Numbered from the stretch's first letter, positions 3,257 to 43,034 are shown. The stretch is DNA of 64,000 nucleotides from Candidatus Saccharimonadales bacterium (GCA_035478335.1 DATIJS010000057.1:8143-72142); one strand, 5' to 3'. The notes: generated by a model not told the origin, from the sequence alone. Made by a program: numbers and translations.

Positions 3257-4450
3257 ATGTTAATTACTGCACTTGTTTTTCTTCTTCTCCTCTCAGTTCT
3301 GGTACTCATTCATGAAGCGGGGCATTTTTTTGTCGCCAAAAGGTTTGGAATAAAAGTTGAGGAGTTTGGATTTGGTTTGCCTCTGACCAAAGCATTATTT
3401 TCAAAAAAAATAGGTGAGACAATTTATTCATTTTATCCGGCTCTGATTGGAGGATTTGTAAAGCTATACGGTGAAGATGATGCAGGGGCAGGACGTGTAA
3501 AGTTAAAAGTTAAAAGTGAAAAGTTAAAAGTTGGAGATGAAGATAGGGCATTTTATAGCCGTTCACTTTGGCAAAGAGCTGCTGTAATTCTGGCCGGAGT
3601 TGTGATGAACACGATTCTGGCTATTGTTATTTTTTACGCATTTCTCGCTGTATCCAATTTCCAGACAGTTGTTCCTATTCTGGGCGAGAATGCACCGCAA
3701 TTTATAGGAGCTGAGCAGAAATTTATACCAAAAGGTGCATCAATCGGCAGAGTTGCTCCGGGTTCTCCGGCTGAAAAGGCAGGAATTAAGATTCAATCGG
3801 TGGTGACATCAATAAATGGCCAGAAAGTTACAGGCAATAATGAATTGATTGACATAATAAACAAAAATAAAGGAAAAGAGACAACAGTTGACTGGTTTGA
3901 TATTAATGCAAATAAGAAGTTTACAGCAAATATCGTTCCAAGAGTTTCTCCTCCTAAAAATGAGGGAGCAGTCGGAATAGCGTTTGATTATAATCAATAT
4001 GATTTGGCAATCCTAAATTATGAAAAGCCGGAGAATAAAATATTTGCAGGATTTTCACATACATACAATACATTTCTTTACAATGCGGATGGAATTAGAG
4101 CGTTATTCAGTCAATCAGTCAAGGAAAAAAATGTAGGTGCAATTAGTAAAAATGTCGGAGGGCCTGTCATGATTTTCAAAATTGTTGGTGACATAATAAA
4201 AATTCCTGATGCGAAAGAAATAGTACTGCAGCTCTTGAATATGGCCGGGACACTTTCTCTCTCGCTTGCATTTTTTAATGTATTACCAATCCCCGGGCTT
4301 GATGGAGGAAGATTGTTTTTCATCGAAATTGAGGCTGTAACGCGCCGCAAATTAAATCCCAAATTTGAGTCCATCGCCAATGCGGTTGGCATGGCCGTTC
4401 TGATCGGGTTAATAATGCTTATTACTTTTAAAGATATTTTTCTAAAATAA
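3257..4450 (+). CDS. rseP: site-2 protease RseP family zinc metalloprotease with PDZ domain
   Basis: N-terminal TM helix plus HEAGHF (HExxH) motif, a PDZ-like middle and the C-terminal LDGG motif (LPIPGLDGGRL). Confidence 0.85.
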   Translation: MLITALVFLLLLSVLVLIHEAGHFFVAKRFGIKVEEFGFGLPLTKALFSKKIGETIYSFYPALIGGFVKLYGEDDAGAGRVKLKVKSEKLKVGDEDRAFYSRSLWQRAAVILAGVVMNTILAIVIFYAFLAVSNFQTVVPILGENAPQFIGAEQKFIPKGASIGRVAPGSPAEKAGIKIQSVVTSINGQKVTGNNELIDIINKNKGKETTVDWFDINANKKFTANIVPRVSPPKNEGAVGIAFDYNQYDLAILNYEKPENKIFAGFSHTYNTFLYNADGIRALFSQSVKEKNVGAISKNVGGPVMIFKIVGDIIKIPDAKEIVLQLLNMAGTLSLSLAFFNVLPIPGLDGGRLFFIEIEAVTRRKLNPKFESIANAVGMAVLIGLIMLITFKDIFLK

Positions 4451-14681: not shown

Positions 14682-14810
14682 AATAACCCAATAACCCAAT
14701 AAGCAAATACTACAAATCAAAATCCAATGCAGAATGCTCAATGAAAATATTTTTTATTTGAAATTTAGTTATTGATTTGTTTATTTGTTTATTGGTAGTA
14801 TTGGGTTATT
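14682..14810. repeat. AT-rich palindromic intergenic element, family 1 copy a
   Basis: Arms are built from short tandem repeats (AATAACCC x2 … TTTGTTTATTTGTTTATT). The sequence is homologous to the element at 16473-16620. Confidence 0.55.
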
Positions 14811-16472: not shown

Positions 16473-16620
16473 AAATACTACCAATAACCCAATATGCAAA
16501 TACTACCAATCAATAACCCAATACAAAATATTCAAATATAGAATTCTACATTTAGATTTTTAGCGTTGATTTGACTATTGGATTATTTGTTTATTTGTAG
16601 TATTCTTCGACTGAAAGAAG
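16473..16620. repeat. AT-rich palindromic intergenic element, family 1 copy b
   Basis: Shares ~30-nt blocks with 14682-14810 (AATAACCCAATA.GCAAATACTAC.AATCAA; TTGATTTG…TTATTTGT.TATTTGTAGTATT) and has an inverted-repeat architecture. Confidence 0.55.
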
Positions 16621-16624
16621 AAGT

Positions 16625-18214: not shown

Positions 18215-18290
18215 GTGTTAGGGTTTAGGTTTTAGTAATTTTATTTATTACTGATCCCTAAGACCTGAAACCTAAAACCTGATTAGGGAG
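18215..18290. repeat. palindromic intergenic element (TTAGGGTTTAGGTTTTAG … CCTAAGACCTGAAACCTAAAACCT)
   Basis: Imperfect inverted arms of short tandem repeats after the dnaX stop. Confidence 0.4.
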
Positions 18291-18299
18291 GTGATTTTT

Positions 18300-18587
18300 A
18301 TGAATAATCCATTTGGTCAATTAGGAGAACTTAAAAAAATGAGGGATCAGGCAATGCAGATCCAAAAGCAGCTCAAAATGGAAGAGGTTGAGATAAATAA
18401 GCACGGAGTGTATGTTCGAATTTCAGGTGACCAGGAAATCAGAGAGATAATCAGTAACGGTAAATCAGACAATGATATAAGGGGTGCAATAAACGAGGCC
18501 GTTAAAAAGTCGCAAGAAGTAGCTGCCAAAAAACTTCAAAGCATGGGAGGAATGGGCGGACTCGGAGGATTGCTGGGTGGTAAATAA
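18300..18587 (+). CDS. ybaB: YbaB/EbfC nucleoid-associated protein
   Basis: Conserved position after dnaX, typical ~95-aa length, and a Gly/Met-rich C-terminus. GGGAGG RBS at 18284-18289. Confidence 0.8.
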   Translation: MNNPFGQLGELKKMRDQAMQIQKQLKMEEVEINKHGVYVRISGDQEIREIISNGKSDNDIRGAINEAVKKSQEVAAKKLQSMGGMGGLGGLLGGK

Positions 18588-18665
18588 GGGTAAAGGGGAA
18601 AGCGGGAAGGGTGAAGTTTAAAAACTTCTTTCCCCTTAACGCTTAACGCTTTTCCCTAATAAACT
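18588..18665. repeat. GC-richer imperfect hairpin of the same repeat family that flanks the four-helix-bundle gene (gene-less copy)
   Basis: GGGTAAAGGGGAAAGCGGGAAGGGTGAAGTTT | AAACTTCTTTCCCCTTAACGCTTAACGCTTTTCCC. Its units GGGGAAAGCG and GCGTTAAG are shared with 38138-38163 and 38521-38546. Confidence 0.5.
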
Positions 18666-19625
18666 ATGGTAAATAAATCTGAAGATTTTATTCTTTTAAC
18701 AGGCCGTTCAAACGTGCAGTTGGCGAAAGATGTTGCAAAACTTCTTGGGCAGAAACTGCATGAACCTATTAGTCTTTTTTCTGATGGCGAGATAAGAGTG
18801 AGAGTTCCGGTTAGCTTGCGGAATATGCATGTCTTCATCATTCAGCCAACCGCGCCGCGTGTAAATGACAGCATCATGGAACTTCTACTTATGATTGATG
18901 CTGCCAAAAGAGCTTCTGCTTCTGAAATCTCAGCAATTATTCCATATTTTGGCTATTCACGCCAGGATAGGAAAGAAATGCCGCGTGTTCCGATCAGTTC
19001 TTCGGCAATTGCCAATATGATCACAAATGCCGGCGCAACGCAAATTTTGACAATTGATATCCATTCGCAGCAGCAGCAGGGATTTGTTTCAATCCCATGG
19101 GACAATCTGTACGGCAGTTATGCTTTGCTCCCGATGATTAAGTCACTAAAATTAAAAGATCTGGTAGTTGCTTCCCCTGACAAAGGCGGAATGATTCAAG
19201 CAACAGGTTATGCAAAGCTTTTGGGGGCAGATGGAGTAGCACTTGTTTATAAAGAGCGGGATGTTGCTGTCAACGATAAATCAGGGACTTCGGCAATGAT
19301 CGGAAAAGTAAAGGATAAGAATGTACTTTTGGTTGATGACATAATCAGCACGGGAGGCACTATCGTAAACGCTGCTGTCTATTTAAAAGAACGTGGTGCG
19401 AAAAGCGTCAGACTGGCAATTGTTCATGGTCTTTTTGTTGGAGATGCAATCGAGAAAATAAAAAATCCGGTTATTGATGAGATTTTTGTGTCAGATACGA
19501 TTGAGCAGAGAAGTGAAGTTAAAAATATCAAAAAAGTTAAAATTGCTTCAGTTGCACCTCTTTTGGCTGAAGCAATAAAAAGAATTCAAACCGGTCAGTC
19601 GATAAGCCGTGATTTGATTTTGTAA
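18666..19625 (+). CDS. prs: ribose-phosphate pyrophosphokinase (paralog 1)
   Basis: PRPP synthetase signature …GYSRQDRK…, a PRPP-binding loop VLLVDDIISTGGT and a DGEI flexible loop. Confidence 0.9.
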   Translation: MVNKSEDFILLTGRSNVQLAKDVAKLLGQKLHEPISLFSDGEIRVRVPVSLRNMHVFIIQPTAPRVNDSIMELLLMIDAAKRASASEISAIIPYFGYSRQDRKEMPRVPISSSAIANMITNAGATQILTIDIHSQQQQGFVSIPWDNLYGSYALLPMIKSLKLKDLVVASPDKGGMIQATGYAKLLGADGVALVYKERDVAVNDKSGTSAMIGKVKDKNVLLVDDIISTGGTIVNAAVYLKERGAKSVRLAIVHGLFVGDAIEKIKNPVIDEIFVSDTIEQRSEVKNIKKVKIASVAPLLAEAIKRIQTGQSISRDLIL

Positions 19626-37119: not shown

Positions 37120-37234
37120 AGTATTTTATTAATCGGGTCCTGTCGTGCTCCTCTCCCGTCCGACGGCTTCACTCACTTTGTTCGTTGCAGGCGCTCGATG
37201 AGAGTCCCTCTCCGCACGCCACCCGCTTTTGTTT

Positions 37235-38137
37235 TCACAAGTCCTGATTTACTATTTTTTCTCTTTCCGCTTCTATTTCCTCAAGTGCCACTTTAACTTG
37301 CTCGTCTTTTGGAGGTGCGCCATCAACATCTTTGAGCCCCGGTGGCATTCCGTGCCATTTGTAATTTCCTTCCATGTAGCTAACACCTTTCCCCGGAACA
37401 GTATGGGCAATGATTATTACAGGTTTGTCTTTTACATTTTGTGCCTCCTGCACAGCTTCAACAAATGCCTTGATGTCGTTTCCATCAACATCAATCACAT
37501 GCCAGTTGAATGCTTCATATTTTGCGCGAAACGGCTCAAGCGGCATGATGTCTGAAATATTCCCGTCAATCTGTATGTTGTTGAAATCAATAACCTGAAT
37601 CAGATTGTTGAGTTTTAATTTGGCTGCAAACATAACAGCCTCCCAGATATTTCCCTCTTGGTGTTCGCCATCGGATGTCAGACAATAGACTTTATAATCT
37701 TTCTTATCAAGTCTTCCGGCTAGCGCAATGCCTGCAGCTTGTGAAATTCCCTCACCAAGAGGCCCTGATGTATTCTCAACTCCGGGAAGCGCAGTTCTAT
37801 GAGGATGACCCTGAAGACGTGTGCCGATTTTCCTTAATGTTTTTAATTCCTCAATTGGGAAATATCCGGCTTGGCTCATACTGGCGTAACGGATAGGGCA
37901 GATGTGGCCGTTTGAAAGGATAAGGCGGTCACGGTCTTCCCAGTCAGGATTCTTGGGGTCGTGACGCAGTATGTGGAAATACATTGCTGTAAAGATATCT
38001 GCCATGCCGAGTGGCCCTCCTGTGTGACCGGCACCAGAGTTCTTGCATGCAGCATCAAGCTCCTCGATTAGCAGTTTTCTGACCTCATTGGCTTTAAGCT
38101 TGAGGTCTTTTAGTTTTTCGTTTGTAAGTTGGTTCAT
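37235..38137 (-). CDS. transketolase, N-terminal (TPP-binding) subunit
   Basis: GHTGGPLGMADI, the TPP-binding SDGEHQEGNIWEA and a GDG-like motif. Confidence 0.9.
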   Translation of the reverse strand: MNQLTNEKLKDLKLKANEVRKLLIEELDAACKNSGAGHTGGPLGMADIFTAMYFHILRHDPKNPDWEDRDRLILSNGHICPIRYASMSQAGYFPIEELKTLRKIGTRLQGHPHRTALPGVENTSGPLGEGISQAAGIALAGRLDKKDYKVYCLTSDGEHQEGNIWEAVMFAAKLKLNNLIQVIDFNNIQIDGNISDIMPLEPFRAKYEAFNWHVIDVDGNDIKAFVEAVQEAQNVKDKPVIIIAHTVPGKGVSYMEGNYKWHGMPPGLKDVDGAPPKDEQVKVALEEIEAEREKIVNQDL

Positions 38138-38163
38138 AAGCGTAAAGCGTTAAGGGTAAAGCG
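38138..38163. repeat. left inverted-repeat arm flanking the four-helix-bundle gene (units GTAAAGCGTTAAG x2)
   Basis: AGCGTAAAGCGTTAAGGGTAAAGCGTTAAGCC. Its units are the reverse complement of units in the right arm (38521-38546) and of the hairpin at 18588-18665. Confidence 0.5.
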
Positions 38164-38520
38164 TTAAGCCATCTTGTTAATCATAACAAATAACATTTTC
38201 ATTATCTCATTTAATAGCGATTCTGCTTCCGTAAAGTCAATATGTTTAAATTTTGAAATAGAATTACAAACCAAAATCTGAGTTTCTAGTTCTGCTGCTG
38301 AACCTAAGGCAATTGAAAGAAATTGAATGTATTCTTTTCTGTGTCTCCTTAGATATCCTTCAGCAATATTGCTTGGGATTGAGACAGCTGCTCGTTCAAT
38401 TTGAGATCGTAACCCATATAATTCGTCCTTTGGGAATTTTTCTGTTAGTAAATAAATTAATTTGACAAGCTCCATTGATTTTTGCCAAACAATTAATTCT
38501 TTGTAAGATTTAACTAACAT
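38164..38520 (-). CDS. four-helix-bundle protein of the 23S rRNA intervening-sequence protein family
   Basis: ELIVWQKSMELV…FPKDELYGLRSQIERAAVSIPSNIAEGY…RKEYIQFLSIALGSAAELETQ matches this family along its whole length (~118 aa). Confidence 0.85.
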   Translation of the reverse strand: MLVKSYKELIVWQKSMELVKLIYLLTEKFPKDELYGLRSQIERAAVSIPSNIAEGYLRRHRKEYIQFLSIALGSAAELETQILVCNSISKFKHIDFTEAESLLNEIMKMLFVMINKMA

Positions 38521-38546
38521 ACGCCTTTCCCCTTGACGCTTTCCCC
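38521..38546. repeat. right inverted-repeat arm flanking the four-helix-bundle gene
   Basis: ACGCCTTTCCCCTTGACGCTTTCCCCTTAACCCTTAAG. Its reverse complement contains GGGGAAAGCGTCAAGG, matching left-arm units. Confidence 0.5.
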
Positions 38547-39824
38547 TTAACCCTTAAGTACTATAAATAAATCCGAAATATTTGACTCCAGCTTGCCTGT
38601 GAGTATCCCATCTCCGATTTTTTCCCAGAACCCGTAACTATTATCATCCGATAAAAATTCATTGACGTCAATACCTTGATCATTTATTTTTTTCAAAGTA
38701 TCAGAGTCTGCAAGTGCTCCTGCCAACTCATAAAAATCCCACCCATCCGATCCGACACTTGCAAGTACAGTTTGATCTTTTATAAACGGCAAAGCGCAAA
38801 GAACCAATGCTTGATTGCGGCCTCCTTTGCCGCTCCCTGTTATCTTGATTGTTGACTCACCACCAGCCAAAAGTATTTGCCCTTGAGGTGTTTGATCAAT
38901 TAATTTCTCTCCAAGAGTTCGTGCATCACCTTGCAATGCATCAGTCAGGACGAAGGCGTTTTTACCGAGTTCGCGTGATTTTTTCTCCATTGCGTTGAGA
39001 GCTGTATGATTACTCAGCATCAGTATATTATGAACCCGCTCAAAATACTTGTCTTCTTTCGGGGTTTCTGTAAAGTCTTCAAGAGTCAGGGGGAGGGTTT
39101 GTTTCATATTATATTTTTCATAAATTCCCCATGCATATTCTATAGATGTCGGGTCTTTAACAAGAGGCGCAGATGCTATAACTGATAAATCATTCCCGGG
39201 AACATCCGAGAAGATCAAATTTACAACAGTAGATGGAAATAGAATTTTTGCCAGTCCGCCGCCCTTAACTCTTGATAAATGTTTGCGGATTGAATTAATC
39301 TCAGAGATTGTGGCGCCGGATTTGAGAAGAGTTTTATTGACTTCGATCATTTTATTGATGTCAAATGTATTTGGTTTTTCAAACAGTACTGATCCGCCGC
39401 CGCAAGTTGTGATAATAACCAGATCTTTTTCATTTAAATTTGATAAATTGTTAATTACAGTTTCTGTGAAGTCGAAATTTGTCTGAGAGGGAAGAGGATG
39501 TGTTCCAAGAGTTGGTTTGATTTTGGTAAATTTTTGCTCTACAACATCAATAACATACCCATCAGTAATTAAGTTTCCCATTTTCTCCTCCAAAATTTTA
39601 CACATCAGAGCTGATCCTTTTCCGAATCCTACTATAAATATACGGTCAAAATTGGCCAGATTAAAGGTTTTATCCTGGATTTTTAGAACTTTTTCGTTTA
39701 AGGAAAAATGATTTTTGAACACTTCTTCAGGTTGAATAGAGGCAAATGCAGATTCGATCAGCTGAAGCACAATCTTGCGGTTTTCGTTTGTCGCAAGCGA
39801 ATCGTAATTTTTTATGTAGGGCAT
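38547..39824 (-). CDS. glycerate kinase (MOFRL / glycerate 2-kinase family)
   Basis: N-terminal DUF4147-like Rossmann domain (…IVGFGKGS…), a C-terminal MOFRL region (…LLAGGESTIKITGSGKGGRNQ…) and ~425-aa length. Confidence 0.8.
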   Translation of the reverse strand: MPYIKNYDSLATNENRKIVLQLIESAFASIQPEEVFKNHFSLNEKVLKIQDKTFNLANFDRIFIVGFGKGSALMCKILEEKMGNLITDGYVIDVVEQKFTKIKPTLGTHPLPSQTNFDFTETVINNLSNLNEKDLVIITTCGGGSVLFEKPNTFDINKMIEVNKTLLKSGATISEINSIRKHLSRVKGGGLAKILFPSTVVNLIFSDVPGNDLSVIASAPLVKDPTSIEYAWGIYEKYNMKQTLPLTLEDFTETPKEDKYFERVHNILMLSNHTALNAMEKKSRELGKNAFVLTDALQGDARTLGEKLIDQTPQGQILLAGGESTIKITGSGKGGRNQALVLCALPFIKDQTVLASVGSDGWDFYELAGALADSDTLKKINDQGIDVNEFLSDDNSYGFWEKIGDGILTGKLESNISDLFIVLKG

Positions 39825-41012: not shown

Positions 41013-41567
41013 ATGTTAAGTTTACTTGAAATAGGTGGTCTTAATACAGACACTAGAAAAAATTTAGGTGATGGGGATCACGATTCTTATGCCCACAGAC
41101 TTGCTGCTCAAAAGGAAGAAGCTGCCGCGACAGAAAGACAAGCAGCGGAATCGGCTCGCAGTGCACAAGCTGATGCTAAAAGAGCTGATGCTAAACACGC
41201 ATTACGCAGGCAAAGACAAGTTGCTGCGGGGGCTCTATTGACTGTTGTTGGGGGCGCTATAGCATCAGTTGCATTAGGAATTCTTCCACCAAGAGGCAGA
41301 TCAAGCGCTGATTCGACAAGTCCTTCAGCTACACCCGCAAGCGCATTAAATGCTGGGTGTACAGTATTCAGACAAGATTATATATCACCTCGTGCTGATG
41401 GTACAGTAGCAAGCGTTGTGGCAACTGCAACAGGATTAACGGGAAAGGAATTTGTGAAAGCAATTAACTGCACCATTACAGATCCAGCCAATAGAAGGAA
41501 AATAGGTCCAGATAGTAGAGTGACAGGCCCTATAAATGTTGATCGTCCAGCTCCTACTAGAAAATAA
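41013..41567 (+). CDS. hypothetical Ala/Arg-rich membrane protein in a compositionally atypical (~50% GC) segment
   Basis: Clean 184-aa ORF with one TM helix (AAGALLTVVGGAIASVALGIL). Codon usage is GC-rich and unlike its neighbours. A strong promoter TTGACA-17 nt-TAAAAT and a GTCAC-N6-GTGAC palindrome lie just upstream (40956-41005). Confidence 0.4.
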   Translation: MLSLLEIGGLNTDTRKNLGDGDHDSYAHRLAAQKEEAAATERQAAESARSAQADAKRADAKHALRRQRQVAAGALLTVVGGAIASVALGILPPRGRSSADSTSPSATPASALNAGCTVFRQDYISPRADGTVASVVATATGLTGKEFVKAINCTITDPANRRKIGPDSRVTGPINVDRPAPTRK

Positions 41568-41636: not shown

Positions 41637-43034
41637 GTGACTGCAGTCAATAATAAAACAAAAATCGTCGGTACTTTGGTGCCGATTTCTGCGTTAAGAA
41701 GCAATCAGCAATCTGAAAAAGATTGGGGGACTTTTGAGACAGGTTTGTATTTTCTCGACTGGCTACATAAGACAAATCAATCCGCTTGGCAATTATTGCC
41801 GCTTCACGAGACACAACTTGAGAAAGACTCAGCTACTATTCACGTTCCCTCTCCATATAAAGGGTATGGGATAGGACTGGACCCGGAGTATTTATCTCAA
41901 AAATCAAAAATCAAAAATCAAAAATCAAAAGAAATTGATATATTTATTCGTCAGAACAAGGATTGGATTGAGGATTATGCGTTTTTTTGTGCTCTGCGCG
42001 ATCATTTTGGGACTGATAATTGGGTTCTCTGGGAGTCCGGTTTGAGAAAAAGGGATCAAGCGGCGCTTACAAAATGGAGAATAAAACTGGAAAAAGAAAT
42101 AAATAATCATATTTTTACACAGTGGCAGCTACACGAATCTTACAAAGAATTAAGAGCAAAAGCACACAAGTTCGGTATTGCACTGATGGGGGATTTACCA
42201 TTTTATTTATCAGTAAATAGTCCTCTTGTCTGGGCCCATCAGGAACTATTTCAGATCCCGAAAAGCGGTAAGTTGAGGTTTGTTTCAGGCTGTCCGGATA
42301 CTCCGGCTGCTCATTTTGGGCGTCAAGTCTGGGGGCATCCTCTTTATAATTGGGATTCTGAGCATAGATCAGATCTGATTTCATTCTGGAAGTTGAGACT
42401 TGGTTATCTCTCTAAGCTTTATGATTCTGTCAGGTTTGATCATGCAAAAGCTTTATTTGAGTACGGCAAAATTGATTTGAAGAATAAGTATCAGGATAAA
42501 TATGTAAAAGGTCCGGGGCAGAGTGTTTTTGAAGAATTGATGATTTTTGGCAAAAAATCAGGACTTTCTATGTATGCAGAAGACAGCGGTGAGAATCTGA
42601 AGATGCTTAGAATATATCTTAAAAAATTCAAAACACCAGGGATTAAGATTTTCCGTTTTGCGCTTAATGAGAAGAAAAAGAAATTAAATAAAGAGTATGC
42701 ATTGCTATCTAATTATCCTCAAAATACAGTTGCATACACCACAACTCACGACACCGAACCTCTTCTTGGGTACCTAAATCGTTTAACTGTCTCAGAGAAA
42801 AAACTGCTTTCATTAACAACCGGTGTTAAGTATTCGAGGGATGACAAAGAGTTTGCGCAAGCAATAATAAAAGCTGTTATAGCCTCTCCTGCACATATTG
42901 TAATCGTTCAGCTTCAGGATTGGATTTTGACAACTGATAGGATCAATATTCCCGGAACGGAAAAAGAAGTAGGGGATCTTAATTGGAGATATAAATTGAA
43001 AATTCCGATTGAAGAACTGCCAGATAGTATTTGA
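41637..43034 (+). CDS. malQ: 4-alpha-glucanotransferase (amylomaltase, GH77)
   Basis: GH77 signature blocks …SPYKGYGIG…, …FGIALMGDLPFYLS…, …VWGHPLYNWD…. It contains an in-frame (TCAAAAA)x4-5 repeat at 41897-41931. Confidence 0.85.
   Translation: MTAVNNKTKIVGTLVPISALRSNQQSEKDWGTFETGLYFLDWLHKTNQSAWQLLPLHETQLEKDSATIHVPSPYKGYGIGLDPEYLSQKSKIKNQKSKEIDIFIRQNKDWIEDYAFFCALRDHFGTDNWVLWESGLRKRDQAALTKWRIKLEKEINNHIFTQWQLHESYKELRAKAHKFGIALMGDLPFYLSVNSPLVWAHQELFQIPKSGKLRFVSGCPDTPAAHFGRQVWGHPLYNWDSEHRSDLISFWKLRLGYLSKLYDSVRFDHAKALFEYGKIDLKNKYQDKYVKGPGQSVFEELMIFGKKSGLSMYAEDSGENLKMLRIYLKKFKTPGIKIFRFALNEKKKKLNKEYALLSNYPQNTVAYTTTHDTEPLLGYLNRLTVSEKKLLSLTTGVKYSRDDKEFAQAIIKAVIASPAHIVIVQLQDWILTTDRINIPGTEKEVGDLNWRYKLKIPIEELPDSI

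Follow-up and report, generated by a model that had tools for sequence, protein, structure and literature searches.

A four-helix-bundle protein gene between inverted heptamer arrays: a probable mobile cassette in an operon of a Candidatus Saccharimonadales bacterium

In a 64,000-nucleotide stretch of DNA from a Candidatus Saccharimonadales bacterium (GCA_035478335.1, DATIJS010000057.1:8143-72142; hereafter, the window), a small gene for a four-helix-bundle (4HB) protein was found between two inverted arrays of seven-nucleotide repeats, inside a metabolic operon. It is rather likely that the unit at positions 38138-38558 is a compact, promoter-less cassette, in which a PF05635 gene is joined to two inverted, lineage-specific heptamer arrays that would form a stem in the operon RNA. 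The gene and its arms move as a unit, and they occupy different intercistronic junctions of housekeeping genes in related genomes. In this report, 4HB means the four-helix-bundle family of PF05635 and TIGR02436 (23S_rRNA_IVP). The cassette is best filed as an element of the intervening sequence (IVS) kind that lies outside rRNA, is built on heptamer arrays, and has a putative tie to dispersed hairpins resembling that of the REPIN-RAYT systems. A sequence-only reading of the window had pointed to the locus; it missed the 7-nt periodicity, the generality across phyla, and the link to published orphan heptamer repeats.

The 4HB gene and its arms

The 4HB gene is located at 38164-38520 on the minus strand and encodes a protein of 118 amino acids. 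The product matches PF05635 (E=1.1e-38, 132.1 bits, cut-off 33.8), TIGR02436 (8e-36, 122.6 bits, cut-off 24), and NF008911 (143.6 bits, cut-off 137). Since all three scores are above the curated cut-offs, the ORF (open reading frame) does belong to the 23S-rRNA-IVS-type family, as had been supposed from the sequence alone. It also matches the sequence of Xanthomonas XCC0516 in PDB 2GSC (E=1.6e-24). The GxxRxxxSxxxNxxE(G) motif, which is conserved in PF05635 and TIGR02436 proteins (PMC3936711), is present in the translation as YGLRSQIERAAVSIPSNIAEG and aligns with the motif of 2GSC. The profile matches include a weak one to PF22296 (bAvd) and no HUH/Y1 transposase domain. In a public assembly, the ORF is called from Met16 and gives 103 amino acids (P0001); homologues align with the 118-residue protein from residue 1-3. 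No other PF05635-type gene exists in the 64-kb window.

Both flanks of the gene consist of degenerate 7-nt tandem repeats, with periods of 7 and 14 in Tandem Repeats Finder (TRF). In the mRNA sense, the 5′ arm (38521-38558, minus strand) is composed of about five degenerate heptamers, CTTAAGG GTTAAGG GGAAAGC GTCAAGG GGAAAGG CGT, whose period of 7 was found by both TRF and autocorrelation. This arm is purine-rich, contains by direct reading only three stretches of at least three G residues, and extends right up to the 4HB ATG. The 3′ arm (38138-38163, minus strand) is the complement of the 5′ arm and is also periodic in TRF; it reads CGCTTTA CCCTTAA CGCTTTA CGCTT, begins just past the 4HB stop codon, and abuts the ATG of the next gene, tktN. 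The TAA stop codon of the upstream glycerate kinase gene (38547-38549) lies inside the 5′ arm. The sequence-only reading had described inverted units of 13-15 nt within flanks of about 26 nt. The inverted arms are real and the 3′ arm does end at the tktN ATG, while the repeat unit is a degenerate heptamer and the 5′ arm extends further, to about 38558.

The arms can pair with the ORF in the loop. The segments 38137-38161 and 38525-38549 are complementary over 25 nt at 84%, and another register gives 24 nt at 88%. In the fold of a 436-nt sense RNA, the arms close the whole ORF, with a minimum free energy of -100.2 kcal/mol (z=-3.35, matched by 0 of 100 shuffles), and the flank-to-flank duplex has an energy of -33.2 kcal/mol (z=-3.9). 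Thus, the pairing proposed from the sequence alone is borne out. So is the proposed likeness to a 23S rRNA IVS; according to PMC4990558, the Coxiella 23S rRNA IVS has a 28-bp terminal stem that encloses the S23p ORF, and RNase III cleaves it.

Near-perfect heptamer arrays also occur in long ORFs of the window, at 3499-3532 and 41897-41930. One array, (AAAGTTA)x4.9, encodes ...VKLKVKSEKLKV..., and the other, (TCAAAAA)x4.9, encodes ...SQKSKIKNQKSK.... Heptamer expansion thus happens in coding sequence of this genome as well.

The host operon is a co-directional row of genes for glycerate kinase, the 4HB protein, transketolase-N, transketolase-C, and an FAD oxidase, in this order. The intergenic gaps flanking the 4HB ORF are exactly 26 nt on each side. 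The upstream gene (38547-39824, minus strand) encodes a glycerate 2-kinase-like protein (DUF4147+MOFRL), and its final codons and stop codon are within the 5′ arm. The downstream gene (37235-38137, minus strand, ATG at 38135-38137) is tktN, which encodes the transketolase N-terminal subunit; both identities agree with the earlier placement of the ORF between these two genes. The cassette is inserted seamlessly: the 5′ arm gives the upstream gene its stop codon and provides a purine-rich leader, and the 3′ arm abuts the next ATG. By direct reading, no Shine-Dalgarno-like sequence lies between the 3′ arm and the tktN ATG. Promoter-like sites in the window are not beyond chance (13 vs 11.0±3.4 expected), nor are terminator-like sites (4 vs 3.6±1.6 expected), and none of either kind lies at the arms. 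There is also no space for the cassette's own promoter in this lineage. An intrinsic terminator was rejected as an identity for the arms, since there is no U-tract or terminator-like site and the 3′ arm runs straight into the ATG.

Relocated cassettes in related genomes

In the closest available genome, Levyibacteriota OFTM270 (locus L002/L003), the 4HB protein is 84% identical to that of the window, while the neighbouring proteins are 60-78% identical. Thus, the cassette is at least as conserved as the surrounding housekeeping genes. OFTM270 has the same operon, but the cassette is at the junction of tktN and tktC, and the junction of the glycerate kinase gene and tktN is a bare 5-nt spacer without a hairpin. 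The comparison of orthologous transketolase-glycerate kinase loci suggested in the sequence-only reading therefore gives an empty site, with the cassette one junction further on. The OFTM270 arms are homologous to the window arms, and the 3′ arms are nearly identical. The OFTM270 tktN ORF reads into the 5′ arm, which supplies its stop codon, and the C-terminus of the window glycerate kinase departs from the OFTM270 orthologue past ...DLFIV. Between tktC and the FAD oxidase gene, OFTM270 has a gene-less hairpin made of the same units, where the window has a 3-nt gap.

More distant homologues of the 4HB protein (77-79% identical) with arms of the window family were found between genes for a cupredoxin and a Cu-ATPase (two genomes), between pheS and pheT, and between genes for a glycosyltransferase and a polysaccharide synthase. 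In the window, OFTM270 (L002), L083, and L088, the 5′ arm contains the stop codon of the upstream gene. In three contexts, ...CGCTTTACGCTT-ATG leads straight into the downstream gene, which is a different gene each time. No transposase or integrase linked to the cassettes was found in the gene tables of the compared loci. Since different junctions are occupied in related genomes, the cassette is or was mobile. The relocation in OFTM270 and the presence of the same arm family in unrelated operons thus agree with the earlier suggestion of a small mobile cassette carrying the 4HB gene.

The spacer between tktN and tktC in the window (37120-37234), that is, the junction holding the 4HB cassette in the closest relative, is a unique sequence of 115 nt and is the most G+C-rich stretch of the window (up to 65%; genome 38%). 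Rfam gave no match to it, its fold is not significant (z=-0.44), and the window contains no second copy.

Heptamer arrays around 4HB genes of other phyla

Is this architecture common among 4HB genes? The family is very large; in a word-filtered protein search, at least 7,997 of the 8,000 candidates scored were matches to 23S_rRNA_IVP/4HB. I analysed 80 loci from species-representative genomes of many phyla, including groups of the candidate phyla radiation (CPR), Bacteroidota, Omnitrophota, Elusimicrobiota, Acidobacteriota, Planctomycetota, Clostridia, and Rickettsiales, and used the other genes of the same loci as controls. A flank duplex with z<-3 relative to shuffles was found at 49% of 79 4HB loci and at 4% of 242 control genes (Mann-Whitney p=1e-21). 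The lag-7 autocorrelation of the flanks was 0.47 (5′) and 0.43 (3′) for 4HB genes versus 0.31 for controls. Arrays were detectable beside 64 of 84 4HB genes, with a median of about four units per arm (range 2-13). The median gap between the 4HB gene and its neighbours is 48 nt, and the neighbours are co-oriented in 85-86% of cases (controls 71%). None of the 40 4HB loci checked was within rRNA.

The arms have a common design. The 5′ arms are purine-rich (C 12%), most of their units conform to TAG[GC]Gnn, and the 3′ arms are complementary to them. Stop codons in all three frames were found in 57% of the 5′ flanks of 4HB genes versus 20% for controls, and in the antisense strand of 43% versus 14% of the 3′ flanks. 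TAG is enriched 4.6-fold in the flanks, and TAA and TGA are not enriched. The unit sequence varies by lineage with the pairing retained, and the similarity of the arms follows that of the proteins (Mantel r=0.27, p=0.001). Exact heptamers of other arrays within a 6-kb locus recur in the arms of the cassette at that locus ten times as often as in the arms of other loci (0.157 vs 0.015). Solo hairpins adjoin the cassettes in Ignavibacteria, Omnitrophota, Elusimicrobia, and other groups.

A one-sided case was seen in a metagenome contig (L111, Ga0256826_1017888, 380-1600), which has a 4HB gene with only a 5′ arm between gmd and fcl. The coding region of fcl itself contains in-frame sequences that resemble heptamer arms, AGCTTAA CACTTAA CGCTAAA and AAGCGTTAAGCGTTAAGGG; they are apparent insertions relative to E. 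coli Fcl.

Gene-less hairpins

The sequence-only reading had also named a hairpin at 18588-18665 that is built from the cassette units and has no ORF. Fold and arm alignment place this solo hairpin at 18587-18657 (plus strand), between a ybaB-like gene and prs. The ybaB-like stop codon (18585-18587) lies at the base of the 5′ arm, the prs ATG is at 18666, and, like the cassette, the hairpin begins with its purine-rich arm. The hairpin folds with -32.5 kcal/mol (z=-3.84, matched by 0 of 200 shuffles) and is followed by AATAAACTATG. Two alignments placed its arms in register with the cassette arms at equal polarity, so it is indeed made of cassette units. Dense clusters of shared 8-mers in the window are limited to the two cassette arms and this hairpin (27-32 per site; at most 4 elsewhere). 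The shared units, and a leader-like sequence near the loop of solo hairpins from metagenomes (see below), lead to the conclusion that hairpins with and without the ORF represent two states of a single element; gene-less hairpins of shared units are the solo form of the cassette element. As for a reading of the solo hairpins as miniature inverted-repeat transposable elements, inverted arms are present, and the sole ORF-bearing relative encodes a 4HB protein and not a transposase. A second solo heptamer hairpin, at 18215-18290 (plus strand), is of the TAG type, TAGGTGT TAGGGTT TAGGTTT ... CCTAAGA CCTGAAA CCTAAAA; this type of unit is the commonest around the 4HB genes of other phyla.

A metagenome scan with the 19-nt arm motif CCCTTAACGCTTWACGCTT returned 54 loci. 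Contrary to the expectation of many cassettes, a 4HB gene adjoined the match in only one of them. The other matches were solo hairpins, one-sided arrays, arrays within coding sequences, and telomere-like (CCCTAAA)n arrays on higher-GC contigs. On low-GC, CPR-like contigs, the motif lies in compact hairpins resembling that at 18587-18657, located between nusG and rplK, between atpH and atpA, upstream of rpiB, and at other sites. These CPR-like solo hairpins always have the purine-rich arm first, and the next ATG follows immediately. Near the loop, they resemble the cassette leader; for instance, GGGTAAAGAAATAAAAAC of one solo hairpin corresponds to GGGTAAAGATAAAATAG-ATG of a cassette. Five contigs of about 50% G+C (L091, L092, L095, L102, and L107) matched the motif with very long one-stranded arrays of the CCCTAAA/CCCTTAA type. 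They were rejected as copies of the element, being telomere-like, probably eukaryotic, and hence false positives. In another contig (L132, Ga0105099_10004185, 3850-4100), about 18 GGGTTCA-type units and about 18 CCCTTAA/CGCTTAA units form a giant hairpin of -107 kcal/mol with no ORF between them.

Two other long intergenic hairpins of the window, at 14682-14810 and 16473-16624 (-42 and -27 kcal/mol), consist of AATAACCC-like repeats of about 8 nt. Their C-rich arm comes first, which is opposite to the polarity of the heptamer hairpins, and their loops are 60-70 nt. They are a second hairpin family of the same genome.

Heptamer arrays of Xanthomonas and cyanobacteria

The gene of XCC0516, the Xanthomonas protein crystallised as PDB 2GSC, lies between accB and accC, with GGGAATC-type heptamers before it and CCCATTC-type heptamers after it. 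The fold of this locus closes the gene (z=-8.7). Rehm et al. (PMC4692102) described GGGAATC repeats at 186 sites of X. campestris, including 70 convergent pairs, with a preference for four units. The heptamers of Xanthomonas and Nostoc were reported to lie at or overlap stop codons, their function being unknown, and were read as G-quadruplex formers; GGGAATC repeats form such structures in vitro, and assembled transcripts of X. citri start or stop at heptamer arrays more than at control repeats (PMC4692102). The text of that paper does not mention '23S', 'S23', or 'helix bundle'.

Framed 4HB genes were also found on cyanobacterial plasmids. In Nostoc edaphicum pNe_5 (L152, 259376-259744), (GGGAGTA)n ... 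(TCCCTAC)n arrays surround a 4HB gene with a fold of -89 kcal/mol. It lies between two genes for ribonucleotide reductase subunits (nrd) and on the opposite strand, which indicates that the cassette can sit antisense to the host operon. A Geminocystis plasmid has a 4HB gene framed by (AAAAGGG)n, and a Stanieria plasmid has inverted heptamer arrays with a 3′ arm of the CTTCTGC/CCTCTGC type and a flank duplex of -46 kcal/mol. Some IMG/VR viral contigs have framed 4HB copies, too. In several of these cyanobacterial plasmid and viral loci (L148, L150, L155, and L157), the 5′ arm is separated from the ATG by a conserved leader of about 45-60 nt, in which the ACTTCAAACTT motif recurs and a TATAAT box resembles a -10 element. 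Judging from these motifs, cassettes of the cyanobacterial type may carry their own promoter inside the arms.

The window arms resemble the Xanthomonas (GGGAATC) and Nostoc (GGGGA(C/T)T) repeats in being tandem 7-nt units in about four copies that overlap stop codons and often form convergent pairs. The period of 7 in TRF, the about 4-5 units per arm, and the glycerate kinase stop codon inside the array all conform to this description. In contrast, the window units, AAGGGGA and AAGCGTC, have a lineage-specific sequence, and a G-quadruplex calls for at least four G3 tracts while the window 5′ arm has three G runs. The Nostoc unit is the reverse complement of the cyanobacterial STRR1 heptamer.

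Comparison with known systems

The cassette is like the rRNA IVSs of Leptospira, Coxiella, and the CPR, in both 23S and 16S rRNA, in that a PF05635 ORF lies in the loop of a terminal inverted-repeat stem. CPR rRNA insertions also carry a 4HB gene (PMC11270868). Both kinds of element sit in a transcribed host unit and use host transcription, and their sporadic distribution suggests mobility (PMC4990558; PMC11270868). PMC4990558 reports that RNase III excision was shown for rRNA IVSs and cites an old proposal that the IVS ORF serves mobility. In contrast to the rRNA IVSs, the window copy lies between protein-coding genes of an operon (glycerate kinase and transketolase-N) and not in an rRNA helix, and its arms are 7-nt arrays that give stop codons and abut the start codons of neighbours. 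No Rfam family, rRNA included, matched anywhere in the window.

A likeness to the repetitive extragenic palindromes (REPs) and their REPIN-RAYT systems is also evident. In both cases there are dispersed intergenic palindromes and a partner gene flanked by inverted copies, and the lineage-specific repeat matches the flanks of the resident gene. The differences are that the 118-residue 4HB protein lacks the HUH/Y1 (IS200/IS605-like) transposase domain, and that tandem heptamer arrays take the place of a single imperfect palindrome. Avd, the accessory protein of diversity-generating retroelements (DGRs), is homologous in fold, and the window protein has weak matches to PF22296 and NF033474. It is a basic pentamer that binds nucleic acid and reverse transcriptase. 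A DGR/Avd identity was rejected for the window protein, as NF033474 scored 32.7 bits against a cut-off of 80 and no reverse transcriptase gene is adjacent. Among the immediate neighbours of the 4HB gene (those for glycerate kinase, tktN, tktC, and the FAD oxidase; the rest of the window was not searched for reverse transcriptase), there was neither a reverse transcriptase gene nor template or variable repeats.

Proposed mechanism and alternative explanations

In the operon transcript, the arms may pair into a stem of about 25 bp with the ORF in the loop, which would reproduce the topology of an RNase III-cut 23S rRNA IVS. A duplex of about 25 bp is long enough for RNase III. The stem would insulate or excise the insert, as in the rRNA IVSs, and the insert could then sit in rRNA or in operons harmlessly. 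The purine-rich 5′ arm may also serve the 4HB gene as its ribosome-binding region, and stops in every frame would make insertion safe in any upstream reading frame. The basic 4HB protein probably recognises the heptamer arrays. The 4HB proteins have a median pI of 9.1, and the related PDB entries 2GSC and 2RLD have five chains each, which fits a protein that binds repeated 7-nt units.

Several observations weigh against a cassette that works through an RNA stem. No rnc-like (RNase III) signature motif was found in the window, and no catalytic function of the cassette was identified. The flank duplex energies of the sense and antisense strands hardly differ (-40.4 vs -39.4 kcal/mol, p=0.10), and so do not tell an RNA stem from a DNA inverted repeat. 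Ribosomes terminate and start inside the arms, which would oppose stem formation. At about one quarter of the 4HB genes no array is detectable, and the flanks of about half are only weakly complementary. Between the filled and empty glycerate kinase-tktN junctions, exact boundaries or a target-site duplication are not recognisable at 72-80% DNA identity. In Xanthomonadaceae, the 4HB insert is stably inherited at one site (see also PMC4692102), so mobility there is slow or ancient. Lastly, if transcription starts inside the leader of about 45-60 nt in the cyanobacterial-type copies, the cassette's own transcript would lack the 5′ arm.

Some of these points suit an element acting at the DNA level, whose arrays would be terminal inverted repeats or hairpin recombination sites, used by an enzyme in trans, by slippage, or by template switching, or whose ORF would enter the loops of solo hairpins; the RNA stem would then be incidental. 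The complementarity is equally good on both strands, and the arrays are outermost in the unit, as in a transposon. Some cyanobacterial and viral copies hold their leader inside the arms, and the Nostoc cassette is antisense to the flanking nrd genes. The solo hairpins at many junctions are possible landing pads, and the expansion of heptamer arrays within coding regions of this genome suggests slippage. However, the gene tables examined link no transposase or integrase to the cassettes, no target-site duplication was seen, and the empty OFTM270 site has no hairpin, so a landing pad is not required. Members of the family in rRNA are demonstrably processed as RNA (PMC4990558). I regard a DNA-level element as rather unlikely. 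A host protein that works with dispersed binding sites, in the manner of REPIN-RAYT, is unlikely too, though slightly less so. The 4HB protein would be a long-term resident factor that acts on dispersed arrays, regulates intercistronic hairpins (mRNA stability or translation coupling), and autoregulates through its own arms, with mobility being secondary. It would account for the match of dispersed arrays to the arms of their own 4HB gene, seen in the 6-kb loci, in Xanthomonas together with PMC4692102, and in the window, as well as for the vertical inheritance at accB-accC, the basic proteins, the five chains of related PDB entries, and the conservation of the 4HB protein beyond that of its housekeeping neighbours. 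The typical 3-5 units per arm and the four-unit preference in PMC4692102 are in line with it, while the full range of 2-13 units is not. Further, PMC4990558 states that Coxiella S23p appears not to be made in vivo, and solo hairpins greatly outnumber cassettes in the pattern search.

Two other explanations are far less probable. That the arms are ordinary terminator or attenuator hairpins or slippage products which happen to flank the gene is very improbable. Although several repeat-built intergenic hairpins of this genome enclose no 4HB gene and a slight lag-7 excess is also seen in control genes, the association is family-specific (49% vs 4%), recurs in many phyla with different unit sequences, and involves no U-tract or terminator-like site at the arms; moreover, the arms move with the gene, and the co-divergence of arm and protein contradicts chance. 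It is equally hard to believe that the G-rich arrays act as G-quadruplexes, as proposed for the Xanthomonas and Nostoc repeats. GGG runs occur in many 5′ arms and GGGAATC does form the structure in vitro (PMC4692102), but the window 5′ arm has too few such runs, and the feature conserved across loci is the complementarity of arm to arm. As a general explanation, G-quadruplexes were rejected, since many arm families have no G3 tracts (e.g., TAGCGTA, TAGGCAA, and CAGTTCA).

Another feature of the window

An ORF of 184 codons at 41013-41567 encodes an Ala/Arg/Ser-rich sequence with a high-G+C-looking composition unlike that of its neighbours, and the G+C content has a local peak at 41085-41200. 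This stretch may be of foreign origin, or it may be non-coding DNA that was taken for an ORF.

Implications

The 4HB family has solved structures and no known function, and has been discussed mainly as the cargo of rRNA IVSs, as the Avd protein of DGRs, and as a guest of cas operons. A full-text search outside the subscription-only literature found no paper tying PF05635 to heptamer arrays, and the family-wide heptamer-array architecture of 4HB genes appears to be undescribed. Earlier work noted a 4HB gene in cas loci, for example between cmr3 and cmr2, and took its presence for a functional association (PMC3936711). The present results suggest that the cas-locus copies hitch-hike in operons instead. 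Thus, the presence of a 4HB gene in a cas or metabolic operon should be taken with caution, as it is no proof of functional association.

It is possible, if tentative, that PF05635 proteins and inverted heptamer arrays make up a widespread two-part system with a logic like that of REPIN-RAYT. An oligomeric protein would read its own arrays, its gene would ride in a hairpin of these arrays, gene-less hairpins would settle at junctions, and the rRNA IVSs would be a special case. Culturable models are at hand in the accB-XCC0516-accC locus of Xanthomonas, for which a crystal structure exists, and in the Nostoc plasmids; RNase III processing and array binding are directly testable there. One testable system would join the ORFs of IVSs, the unexplained heptamers of Xanthomonas and cyanobacteria, and the stray 4HB genes in conserved operons. 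If true, the two-part system would also account for the orphan heptamer repeats found in Xanthomonas and cyanobacteria.

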